DNA of 31,983 bases from an uncultured Candidatus Saccharibacteria bacterium. Lineage in GTDB: Bacteria; Patescibacteriota; Minisyncoccia; Phycocordibacterales; Zambryskibacteraceae. The notes under the pieces are model-generated. The model did no database searches and was not told where the DNA came from. It worked only from the letters and a program-made list of their open reading frames with translations. The stretch covers positions 1 through 31,983 of the forward strand of contig CAZAZG010000002.1 in NCBI GenBank assembly GCA_964489565.1. Direction: 5' to 3'. Positions 117 through 19,563 of the stretch are shown in pieces (position 1 is the stretch's first letter; every line of letters starts with the position of its first letter). A program made the position numbers and the translations under genes.

Positions 117-147
117 CATTTCGGCTTCCAATTCTGATTTCCAATTT

Positions 148-171
148 TGGCGGAGGGTAAGAGATTCGAAC
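148..171 (-). repeat. Duplicated 3' end of tRNA-Ser (att-like direct repeat, ends in CCA)
   Basis: 150-171 is identical to 306-327 (22 nt). In tRNA sense the copy reads GTTCGAATCTCTTACCCTCCGCCA. Confidence 0.9.
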
Positions 172-305
172 CTTACAGGTTCTGTCCCCTGTTTGGATTT
201 TTCTGTCGCTTTTTTAAAGCTCAGAAAAATACTCAAACAGGCTTCGAATCTCACACGCAGATGTCAAACACCTGCTCCACCCGAAAAACCCGAAATGGGT
301 TTTTT
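150..305 (-). mobile_element. tRNA-associated ~156-bp hairpin element, copy A (putative miniature integrative element)
   Basis: Lies between tRNA-Ser and its 3' duplicate. Inverted T-arm copy at 243-252; stems 188-195/234-241 and 197-205/222-230; CTGTAAG motif at 172-178 on minus strand. Confidence 0.6.
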
Positions 306-17133: not shown

Positions 17134-17204
17134 TGCGGGATCGTCTAATGGTAGGACATTTGCCTCTGAAGCAGAGTATCTTGGTTCGAGCCCAAGTCCC
17201 GCAG
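17134..17204 (+). tRNA. tRNA-Gln(CTG)
   Basis: Acceptor TGCGGGA/TCCCGCA, anticodon loop CTCTGAA, T-arm CTTGG-TTCGAGC-CCAAG; CCA not encoded. Confidence 0.95.
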
Positions 17205-17351
17205 CAAAAAAATCGCGAAGCTATTTTTCGCAGGAAGAGGTGCTGGGAGCACTTCGCCTTGGGCTCGAAAAGCTTTTGAGGCTAAAATTGATTTTATAAA
17301 TTTTAGCCAAAAGGTATACTGATTCTGTAAGAACCGAGACCCCAAGTCCCG
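17205..17351 (+). mobile_element. tRNA-associated ~150-bp hairpin element, copy C
   Basis: 17258-17269 is the exact reverse complement of tRNA 17185-17196; stem 17280-17289/17299-17308; CTGTAAG at 17325-17331; 17341-17351 repeats tRNA 17191-17201. Confidence 0.6.
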
Positions 17352-17433
17352 AATCAATTGACTTTCTAAATATTTAATATAGTTTTCATTGCAGAATGCA
17401 ATTTAGCTAAAAACTTCTAACGGAGAAACTTGC

Positions 17434-17892
17434 ATGTCGAAAAATAAGGCAGTGCCCTCCGTCTTTCTCATTTTTCTAGAGAGAGACGGCACGATTACGT
17501 TGCTTCGTCGAAACAACACAGGGCATATGGATGGGAAGCTTGGCTTACCATCAGGAAAAATTGAGGAAGGTGAGTTGCCAGAAGAAGCGGCAGTCCGAGA
17601 AGGACTAGAAGAGGTTGGCGTGGTGATTCAACAAAACAACCTTGAACTTGTTCATTTGCAGTATCACTCACAAACGCCCAATCTTGGCGGCGACTATGTC
17701 AACTTCTACTTTTTGGTTCGACATTGGGTAGGTAAGTTGATAAATAACGAGCCAGGTATGTGTAGTGAGTTGATTAAAGTTAACCTCAATTTCAATAATC
17801 TTCCTTTAGACATGATTCCATACGTCGCAAAGGCATTACCTCATTGCAAGTCGGACACGATTGTTTACAGCACCCACATCACCCGATTGTAA
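17434..17892 (+). CDS. NUDIX hydrolase
   Basis: Nudix box GKIEEGELPEEAAVREGLEEVG; NNEPGMCSEL. Confidence 0.92.
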   Translation: MSKNKAVPSVFLIFLERDGTITLLRRNNTGHMDGKLGLPSGKIEEGELPEEAAVREGLEEVGVVIQQNNLELVHLQYHSQTPNLGGDYVNFYFLVRHWVGKLINNEPGMCSELIKVNLNFNNLPLDMIPYVAKALPHCKSDTIVYSTHITRL

Positions 17893-17935
17893 TCGGGTGG
17901 TGTTTTTTTAAAAAAACGTTTCAACTCTATACCAC

Positions 17936-18100
17936 ACAGCCAGCGAAAAATACCGTAGGTAGTTTTTCTGTGGAAAAAAGCAAATGATTTTGCTTATAGA
18001 TTGAACTCAAAGCCCGGTTGAGCATTTTCTGAGCTTTGAAAAGGTGTAAGGAAAATCCAAACAGGCTACTGGTTCTGTAAGAACCGAGATCCCAAGCCTG
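17936..18100 (+). mobile_element. tRNA-associated hairpin element, degenerate copy B
   Basis: Shares TTTTCTGAGCTTT (18025-18037) and AAAATCCAAACAGG (18052-18065) with copy A (minus strand), and TTCTGTAAGAACCGAGA (18073-18089) with copy C. Confidence 0.55.
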
Positions 18101-18170
18101 GAAAGTCCGAAAGAGCAGGTTTAACTGGTCCAGAATTTATAGTCAGATAATTATATTTTATCCACTGAAA

Positions 18171-18848
18171 ATGAGAGCACAAGATCTTGAATCGATAAAT
18201 ATTACATTAGAAGAATTATCTAAACAAAAAGCGGATATTGCTCATATTCAGAATGTTTTTACGATTTTAAGGTATAAAAAAGGGACGAGTGATTTTATAA
18301 AAGAGATTGGGCATTTTATTAATCATCAAGATAAGAATCAAGGGCAAATATATGATATTGCTTTGGATTTTATAAGAAACATAGTTAATTTAAAAAATGG
18401 AAACGGCGGTGTAATATGTTCAATACCATTACTTATTACTCAAACAGAACTACTTAGACAATTTATAGCCAGCCTGCTACACCTTCATTTTGAAAAAACA
18501 GTAATTTCAAAAATTGATAATTCTAGTTACCTGCTTATGAAAAGTGTTATAGAAATATTGTGTGATAGAACTTTATTAATTAATAGATCTCTATTGATTT
18601 ATAAAGATGACATTGAGAGGTGCGAACTTAAGTTATTAAATGAAGGGGTAGTAAAATTGAGAATTAAATTTTTCTTTAAACAAAACAGTAACGAAACTTC
18701 TTTTGGTGGTCCTAATGGAATCACTTATGGTCCCCATTTTTTTGTTGAAGCCGATTTAATCAGAGCTATACCTGATGGGTTAGAAAATAATTATTTAAAT
18801 TCAATTGTCTTTGGTCATGAAAATAACCTTCATGACACATCGATTTGA
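18171..18848 (+). CDS. Hypothetical AT-rich orphan protein (225 aa)
   Basis: Long open frame, visibly more AT-rich than the core genes; no motif recognised. Confidence 0.7.
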   Translation: MRAQDLESINITLEELSKQKADIAHIQNVFTILRYKKGTSDFIKEIGHFINHQDKNQGQIYDIALDFIRNIVNLKNGNGGVICSIPLLITQTELLRQFIASLLHLHFEKTVISKIDNSSYLLMKSVIEILCDRTLLINRSLLIYKDDIERCELKLLNEGVVKLRIKFFFKQNSNETSFGGPNGITYGPHFFVEADLIRAIPDGLENNYLNSIVFGHENNLHDTSI

Positions 18849-19088
18849 TGTCAGGATATAAACGGGGCAGCGACAATAAAACGATGCTGTGGTTGCTACT
18901 TTTAAACTTATGCTTGCCATCCGAGTTTCGGCACGCTCGGGAAATTGATTAATTGTCCCCCTACTCTTTCCCCCCCCCAATTATTTAACTTGGTCCCATG
19001 ATATAGCCCTGAACAACAAAATCAGTAAATTCCTCAAAAACTCAGAAATAGGTTACAATTGCGTGAGACCTTTCATAAGGAGAAACAA

Positions 19089-19442
19089 ATGTCCTTACCA
19101 ATACCAAAAACTGTGCCCGAGTTAGGCTTCTACTACCACTACAAGCATAACCCGACAGGTGCTGTAAACAATTACGCTTATGAGGTGCTCGGCGTCGGCT
19201 TTCACACTGAGGACGATGTGCGCCCCGGTGAGGAGCATTTTCTCGTGTATCGTCCTTTATATGAATCTTCGGTATACAAGGCTTCAAAAGAGCTTGGTAT
19301 CGCCTGCTTTGACAATCGTCCGCTTACAATGTGGATGGAAGATGTAGAGAAGGATGGAAAAAAGTTCCCCCGTTTCAAGAAAATCACAGATCTCGCAATT
19401 ATCACGGAGCTCCAGAATATCAGTAGAAATATGTATGCTTAG
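19089..19442 (+). CDS. DUF1653-like protein
   Basis: YYHYK...YEVLGVGFHTE...VYRPLY...RPLTMWME...PRF pattern; AAGGAG SD before ATG at 19089. Confidence 0.75.
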   Translation: MSLPIPKTVPELGFYYHYKHNPTGAVNNYAYEVLGVGFHTEDDVRPGEEHFLVYRPLYESSVYKASKELGIACFDNRPLTMWMEDVEKDGKKFPRFKKITDLAIITELQNISRNMYA

Positions 19443-19563
19443 TCACCGAGGGCAAGAACCGAAGAATGTGAGACCGTGAGTTCGACTTCCCCGAACCAAA
19501 CCACCCCGGAGGGGTGGTTTTACTTTTGTGGTATAATTTTTCTCTACCAGTTAAGTGTAATAT

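Follow-up and report, generated by a model that had tools for sequence, protein, structure and literature searches.

A hotspot of DNA acquisition behind a tRNA-Gln gene of a Saccharibacteria genome, with small elements that copy their target

Introduction

How do accessory genes come to lie in a row behind a tRNA gene, bracketed by small hairpin elements? The question is raised by positions 17205-19520 of the window, a 31,983-nucleotide (nt) stretch of DNA (contig C2; GenBank CAZAZG010000002.1, assembly GCA_964489565.1) from the genome of an uncultured Candidatus Saccharibacteria bacterium, here called G000 (681 kb in 88 contigs, 43% GC, 30 tRNAs). At this locus a tRNA-Gln gene is followed by element C, a NUDIX hydrolase gene, element B, an AT-rich orphan open reading frame (ORF) and a DUF1653 gene. 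A preliminary description took the row to be an integron-like gene-capture array. We found that the site is a hotspot of DNA acquisition; integron-like working is not shown. We lean towards reading the stretch as a small accretion island at the tRNA-Gln 3' end, in which independent insertions would have followed one another, with the older ones lying outward and decaying.

Bacteria of the candidate phyla radiation (CPR) have very small genomes with few recognised mobile elements, so their gain of accessory genes is poorly understood. Here, acquired genes (the NUDIX gene and the orphan, and a Fic gene at a second locus) are stacked at tRNA ends beside tiny target-copying elements. If one machinery moves both genes and elements, this would give a large part of the bacterial tree a new route of gene gain, and would also be a new mode of target choice. 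On a plain reading, the elements explain many of the assembly breaks and 'tRNA-like' fragments in CPR genomes.

Results

Gene content behind tRNA-Gln is variable

The preliminary description was accurate about the parts of the locus: tRNA-Gln, element C, the NUDIX gene with its terminator, the heptamer ACAGCCA, element B, the AT-rich orphan and the DUF1653 gene all lie in that order (Table 1). NUDIX, orphan and DUF1653 are the only ORFs between 17206 and 19442, and none of them is an integrase. We compared the presence and absence of genes in 30 genomes of the family, and the arrangement of the locus with that of the sister species G001, the sole informative genome for this purpose.

The stretch downstream of tRNA-Gln proved to be variable. 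Neither the NUDIX gene nor the orphan was found in the 30 family genomes, where the sole NUDIX homolog is 36% identical, and among the genomes searched the NUDIX gene is species-specific. It has an intact NUDIX box, and the closest match in the protein collection is a homolog with 58% identity. The orphan had no match to Pfam, PHROG or PADLOC, and its GC content is 28%, compared to 43% for the genome; it was probably acquired. The NUDIX gene and the orphan are variable, foreign cargo, and on the accretion reading both were acquired by the species of G000. It had been proposed to check whether NUDIX homologs elsewhere are flanked by the same element at other tRNAs. They are not: one lies convergent with a tRNA-Tyr gene and one follows tRNA-Ala, and both lack elements and repeats.

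Across the tRNA, terminator, inverted arm and small hairpin, the corresponding locus of G001 is 97% identical. Its long hairpin has been exchanged for another, and its TGTAA-loop hairpin has co-varied. Homology stops exactly at the right end of element C, which is the end of X1, its direct copy of the tRNA end. G001 then carries a differing 99-amino-acid (aa) ORF, followed by the DUF1653 gene, which is kept at 81% DNA identity. Changes in gene content had been predicted to break at element boundaries, and in this comparison with one informative sister genome the left breakpoint does lie at one. At the right breakpoint, where homology resumes near 19028, there is no element and only a non-significant X-like stretch.

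The elements are insertions that copy the gene end they occupy

Elements C and B are members of a family of ORF-less elements of about 150 nt that occurs across Patescibacteria. Many G000 tRNAs are trailed by one common architecture. It begins with a palindromic terminator, the stem of which frequently extends into the tRNA acceptor strand, and continues with an inverted copy of the host tRNA's own 3' end, mostly interrupted by a small hairpin. A long hairpin of a few sequence types comes next, followed by a TACTG junction and a 5-bp hairpin with a TGTAA loop, whose stem varies by compensatory pairs. The architecture closes with the stretch from the T-loop through the 3' end of the tRNA, repeated in direct orientation. 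Intact copies fold as a closed rod, with z-scores of -2.7 for C, -4.6 for the G001 copy and -6.7 for element A, which lies behind tRNA-Ser(GGA).

We surveyed the core by a pattern scan of one genome per species. The core is almost confined to Patescibacteria, where it occurs in Saccharibacteria and many Parcubacteria lineages. Its copy number is uneven, with 0 to 17 matches per genome in one bacterial family and 2, 13 and 17 within the genus; the reversed pattern, as a control for these counts, gave 0-5 matches per strand. For 31 of the 83 core matches, a same-strand tRNA lies 90-250 nt upstream, with matching direct and inverted repeats, and others lie in the same layout at the ends of rplK and further protein genes. 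Several genomes have the last rplK codons in duplicate, with an inverted copy behind the stop codon; one duplication is 35 nt long. The target consists of the final 11-35 nt of a tRNA gene, rplK or another conserved gene, and the gene end is kept on both sides. The arms are copies of whichever gene end is occupied. The core is not tRNA-derived, and the same core occurs at protein-gene ends in other genomes. The phrase 'tRNA-derived hairpin elements', used previously, therefore describes the arms and not the conserved core.

Among distant CPR genomes, the core sits at the stop codon of this ribosomal protein L11 gene in L055, L073, L094 and L030 (rplK 3' ends), and also in L074 and L102. One of the rplK sites is a tandem, and the coding sequence is preserved (AAG versus AAA, both lysine).

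Comparison of empty and filled sites shows that the elements are insertions. In element-free relatives the tRNA-Gln gene ends in CCA and is followed by a native hairpin, whereas at filled sites (occupied here by a second core type) CCA is missing from the tRNA and is found, together with that native hairpin, at the distal copy. The direct repeat and the restored gene that mark insertion at a tRNA 3' end are both present. In element C, the tRNA-Gln end (X0) and X1 share an 11-nt exact match, or 14 nt with one mismatch by local alignment; no tRNA-end copy other than X1 reaches significance by this method. Element A has a 22-nt exact tRNA-end duplication, or 27 nt with one mismatch. The inverted arm of A, GTGTGAGATTCGAA, is a better fit to tRNA-Ser(TGA) than to tRNA-Ser(GGA), which the element follows, and the direct repeat of A is perfect over 22 nt. 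This suggests that the inverted arm may be inherited with the element and the direct repeat made upon insertion. In its copy numbers and insertions, the family behaves like a mobile repeat. At tRNA-Ser(GGA), CCA follows the distal tRNA-end copy only.

We considered the possibility that the elements are immobile: tRNA transcripts would have structured trailers, such as RtT-like RNAs or terminators, and local tandem duplication would have copied these. They do lie on the same strand behind tRNAs, their hairpins show compensatory changes, and the RtT repeats of E. coli likewise contain tRNA-end copies. Yet orthologous sites exist both empty and filled, copy numbers are patchy, the core is also found at protein-gene ends, and there is no Rfam match, RtT included; we regard this explanation as highly improbable. 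At the gathering score, Rfam recognised the tRNA alone, and a permissive search up to E = 5 gave nothing relevant. Literature searches that included sequence motifs found no description of the element family, which is apparently undescribed.

Copies of the tRNA end behind the modules

In an accretion island, several independent pieces of DNA would enter one target successively, be it the live tRNA end or a copy that has been displaced. Earlier pieces would be pushed outward by each insertion and decay there. An element would land in the gene end and leave the gene whole, and its inverted gene-end copy, beside the conserved three-hairpin core, would serve as an address. The target undergoing duplication would be X, the tRNA-Gln 3' end from the T-loop onward. 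A tRNA-end copy does follow each module, with X1 after C, X3 after the NUDIX gene and X4 after B, as expected from serial insertion into one tRNA end. The order of events would be B, then NUDIX, then C. Genes would be bracketed by elements because elements and genes all use the same site, and not because elements capture genes.

X3 agrees with the tRNA-Gln end plus CCA at 15 of 25 ungapped positions, among them the discriminator base, a level of agreement attained at only 17 of the 63916 positions tested in the window. The arms of B (CTGTGG and TATAGATTGAACTC) show complementarity to X3, with one uninterrupted stretch of 10 nt, TCTATACCAC; the inverted arm of B matches X3 and not tRNA-Gln. The first 12 nt of X4 are also the first 12 nt of the distal copy in G001. 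The decay that had been proposed for distal copies is seen in B, which has a fold z-score of -1.4 and has lost the closed rod. A fifth tRNA-end copy was sought at 18989-19014, where 13 of 26 positions agree, which is not significant.

Several observations weigh against the accretion reading. The left halves of C in G000 and G001 are 97% identical, a similarity more in line with an old element common to both than with C as the latest arrival. X3, X4 and the possible fifth copy are too decayed for alignment significance. The complementarity between X3 and the B arm is kept, though X3 is only 60% like the tRNA-Gln end, and this would need selection on the hairpin or a foreign origin. No strain-level variants of the locus were found: exact-protein look-ups returned an identical arrangement or no match, and two metagenome junction scans gave 0 matches. 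Contigs with the identical NUDIX gene are present in the samples SRR6448206, SRR6448207, SRR6448209 and JGI 3300020203. Finally, no enzyme for element movement is encoded in the island, and none was identified elsewhere. Because the old-looking left half of C and the X3/B complementarity fit this reading poorly, we kept in play two others, one based on gene capture and one on paired elements.

Element B is a chimera

The exact matches reported earlier for B were reproduced: A shares 14 nt and 13 nt with it, and C shares 17 nt. When B was shuffled 1000 times, matches extended to at most 13 nt with A (once) and 12 nt with C. B is also a mosaic, as had been described: its two ends mismatch each other, and the arms of its long hairpin are of two differing types with no pairing between them, the 5' arm resembling the G001 type and the 3' arm being of the element A type. 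The left half of B had no relative in 120 genomes of the order. The idea that copies exchange their cores gained support from G001, where the orthologous element has a swapped long hairpin between its 97% identical flanks.

These features could indicate that the elements serve as portable homology, so that genes between two copies would be moved or exchanged by recombination within the cores (for example, after DNA uptake), or that two copies form a composite unit through their outer ends, in the manner of a composite transposon. Swapped cores with persistent flanks are consistent with this, as are the junctions within the long hairpin of both B and a chimeric copy on contig C8, and in the window the outer ends (the left half of C and the small hairpin of B) are the best preserved. 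However, the common cores are just 40-60 nt long and 80-90% alike, a poor RecA substrate; no second site with the same gene between elements was found; and the left half of B has no relative among those 120 genomes. We think this explanation unlikely.

The C8 copy (G000:C8:740-960) is nested, with a third small module within the long hairpin. Its inverted arm fits tRNA-Leu(GAG), and its direct copy is the end of tRNA-His.

Genes and elements are separate units

Among 33 tRNA loci carrying an element, we scored those with a second element more than 500 nt further on. The tRNA-element-gene-element layout is rare, with three examples: the tRNA-Gln locus, G000:C19 and L093, which lies at a tRNA-Leu of another genome. 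Within the family, spacing of more than 500 nt was seen only in G000. Most elements are solitary, and gene-less tandems are commoner than element-gene-element.

The G000:C19 locus consists of tRNA-Glu(CTC), element E1, a Fic gene, a short tRNA-end remnant, element E2, which is 88% identical to E1, and E3, a third and partial copy. The Fic gene was not found in the 30 family genomes, and homologs with 51-64% identity immediately follow tRNA-Glu(TTC) on two metagenomic contigs. At four loci (G000, L170, L176 and L177) the Fic end has a conserved motif, AGTTCNGAAAKCCA, then about 8 nt and a heptamer. Three loci have the final bases of tRNA-Glu, GGGT(T)CAC, as this heptamer; L177 has GTGCACC, which is like a tRNA-Leu end. 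Because the end motif and the tRNA-end heptamer recur, the Fic gene looks like a small cargo module that may prefer tRNA ends. The elements beside it are of type 1 in G000, type 2 in L170 and L171, and matched to tRNA-Leu in L177; in L176 the element is absent. Thus, gene and element are separate units rather than one cassette.

The proposed integron-like gene-capture array is supported only in part. The variable gene content, the decay and mosaicism of B and the exchange of cores agree with it; the scarcity of the layout, the mostly solitary elements, the differing elements beside Fic and the lack of an integron integrase do not. In such a scheme the folded element would act as an attC-like recombination site, cassettes would each consist of a gene and one element, and a recombinase would place them at a tRNA end or another element. 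It has some appeal: the element stem rebuilds a double-stranded copy of the target, as do folded attC and the attP of CTX phage; three arrays follow the element-gene-element grammar; both copies within each array have one common small hairpin; and the left breakpoint falls exactly at an element end. On the other hand, there is no element after the orphan and none at the right breakpoint, the NUDIX gene is equipped with a separate terminator, elements mostly occur singly or in gene-less tandems, and Fic homologs retain their own end motif beside unrelated element types. The integrase is lacking as well. The sole PF00589 protein in G000 is encoded on another contig (C16), has XerC/XerD as its best models and scores 103 bits against a cut-off of 265 with the TIGR02249 integron-integrase model; the genome is 95% complete, and a missed gene is possible. 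We consider capture of this kind quite unlikely. A bolder form, to which we give equally little credence, is that Patescibacteria carry out integron-like capture without an integron integrase. One trans-acting machinery would then insert both single-gene cassettes (Fic, perhaps NUDIX) and address-bearing elements at tRNA 3' ends, recognising its target via a folded DNA stem that copies the target.

Candidate enzymes

Accretion by serial insertion would also depend on an enzyme supplied in trans. This might be the Xer-like recombinase, the Y1 proteins resembling RAYTs (repetitive extragenic palindrome (REP)-associated tyrosine transposases), homologous recombination after DNA uptake, or a helper missed by the assembly. 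TnpB, IS110 and serine recombinases were not found in the genome, and the only reverse transcriptase is a weak fragment.

G000 has two RAYT-like Y1 genes, which score below the curated cut-off and are flanked by their own hairpins, unlike the elements. These hairpins speak against Y1/RAYT as the mobiliser, and so does the finding that the presence of the genes is uncoupled from element number. G005 and G018 carry 11 and 7 elements with no Y1 match in either, and G013 has two Y1 genes and no elements. The two genes (G000:C41:4948-5616 and G000:C15:1401-2063; others are in L189-L198) encode about 220 aa, are distantly like REP-associated tyrosine transposases, and have a matching hairpin of their own on each side, for example CTAGGTCTTGCCTAG or CTTGGCGGTTTAACCGCCAAG. 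Such genes are present in 20 of 31 family genomes.

The shared motif GCAAGACC, considered together with Y1/RAYT, is probably there by chance (33 copies in the genome, about 21 expected). A primer-binding site of the retroviral kind was rejected because the inverted arm follows the gene sequence and not the mature tRNA, with TGG only where the gene encodes CCA. Inspection by eye showed no hammerhead-like core: co-variation affects the very bases that such a core would need to keep constant.

Comparison with known systems

Tandem accretion at tRNA genes is known from the cis-mobilizable elements (CIME) and integrative and conjugative elements (ICE) of streptococci, and from the tycheposons and integrase-less satellites of Prochlorococcus. 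The locus shares with them insertion at the tRNA 3' end with restoration of the gene, partial tRNA copies between stacked modules, an older distal side and small variable cargo. In contrast to these systems, there is no integrase in or near the island, two of its modules are ORF-less and about 150 nt long, the elements carry an inverted copy of the target, and the family also targets protein-gene ends.

Integrons likewise have single-gene modules in a row and imperfectly palindromic, structured attC sites in which sequence varies and the fold is kept. The present locus differs in having no IntI, attI or Pc promoter, in genes with their own terminators, in arms that copy the local target and have no R/L boxes, and in genes and elements that do not move jointly. 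A search for the attC consensus boxes (R''/L''...L'/R', GTTRRRY) by inspection, with no formal attC model run, revealed no box common to all copies, as the arms differ from copy to copy.

Miniature inverted-repeat transposable elements (MITEs), REP sequences and their doublets (REPINs) with RAYTs, and the palindrome-associated transposable elements (PATEs) of the IS200/IS605 group are also ORF-less, built of hairpins, multicopy with patchy distribution, and nested or chimeric, and RAYT-like Y1 genes do occur in this genome. Unlike these, the elements duplicate a long and variable target (11-35 nt), which is a gene end, and carry an inverted address; in addition, Y1 presence does not track element number, and the hairpins that flank the Y1 genes are different. 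In the case of the RtT RNA (RF00391, E. coli tyrT), a tRNA gene is followed by repeats some 170 nt long, all of which contain a copy of the tRNA 3' end. The elements do not match its covariance model and, by contrast, are spread over many tRNAs and protein genes and have an inverted copy.

Features of the locus

Table 1. Positions in the window of the tRNA-Gln locus, its repeats and genes, and of element A.
Feature	Position	Strand	Basis or remark
Element A, behind tRNA-Ser(GGA)	145-305	-	Copy sharing its hairpin with element B
tRNA-Gln(CTG), anchor	17134-17205	+	ARAGORN; Rfam tRNA model, 57.9 bits
Element C, intact	17206-17351	+	Parts read from sequence; closed-rod fold
Element C, palindromic terminator	17213-17231	+	
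Element C, hairpin 1	17237-17255	+	Splits the inverted copy of the tRNA end
Element C, inverted T-arm copy	17257-17269	+	CCTTGGGCTCGAA
Element C, long hairpin	17270-17315	+	
Element C, small hairpin	17321-17335	+	TGTAA loop
X1, direct copy of tRNA end in element C	17336-17351	+	
NUDIX hydrolase gene	17434-17892	+	Pfam PF00293, E 4e-16
Intrinsic terminator of NUDIX gene	17876-17903	+	
X3, decayed tRNA-3'-end-like piece	17918-17942	+	Last bases CAGCCA; partner of element B inverted arm
ACAGCCA	17936-17942	+	
Element B, older chimeric copy	17943-18109	+	
Element B, long hairpin	18010-18066	+	
Element B, TGTAA-loop hairpin	18071-18085	+	Intact
X4, right end of element B	18086-18109	+	Starts CGAGATCCCAAG; tRNA-Gln-end-like
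AT-rich orphan ORF, 225 aa	18171-18848	+	28% GC in windows inside the ORF
DUF1653 gene	19089-19442	+	Pfam, E 3e-10; right edge of variable stretch
56-nt insert between DUF1653 stop codon and terminator	19443-19498	+	Absent in G001
DUF1653 terminator	19498-19520	+	

The 56-nt insert behind the DUF1653 gene may hold an element end, to judge from AAGAACCGA, and a T-arm-like sequence, GTGAGTTCGACTTCCCC, similar to tRNA-Leu(TAA).

Related element types

A second core type has the form GCCGGAGYG...CGAGGCGGGGTCGC, a hairpin and TGTGACC, and occupies the slot between the inverted and direct tRNA-end copies. Examples are found in G000 (C12:14989-15407 and C52:914-949), L034 and L036. Its GAG[GCT][CT]GGGGT motif occurs 25 times in G000, and genomes without type-1 elements, such as G004, carry this second type. 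Elements of both types lie in tandem behind a Saccharibacteria tRNA-Phe (L044:2733-3040), the first of them with a 30-nt exact tRNA-end duplication.

Upstream of tRNA-Glu(CTC), at G000:C19:8400-8966 (L160:1401-1967; also L162:1100-1260), there are about 2.5 tandem copies of a 242-nt unit, which is present as a single unit in G001. The unit contains the tRNA-Glu 5' half up to the anticodon loop and, after it, element-like modules that include a TGTAA hairpin. It looks like an element inserted midway in a tRNA copy.

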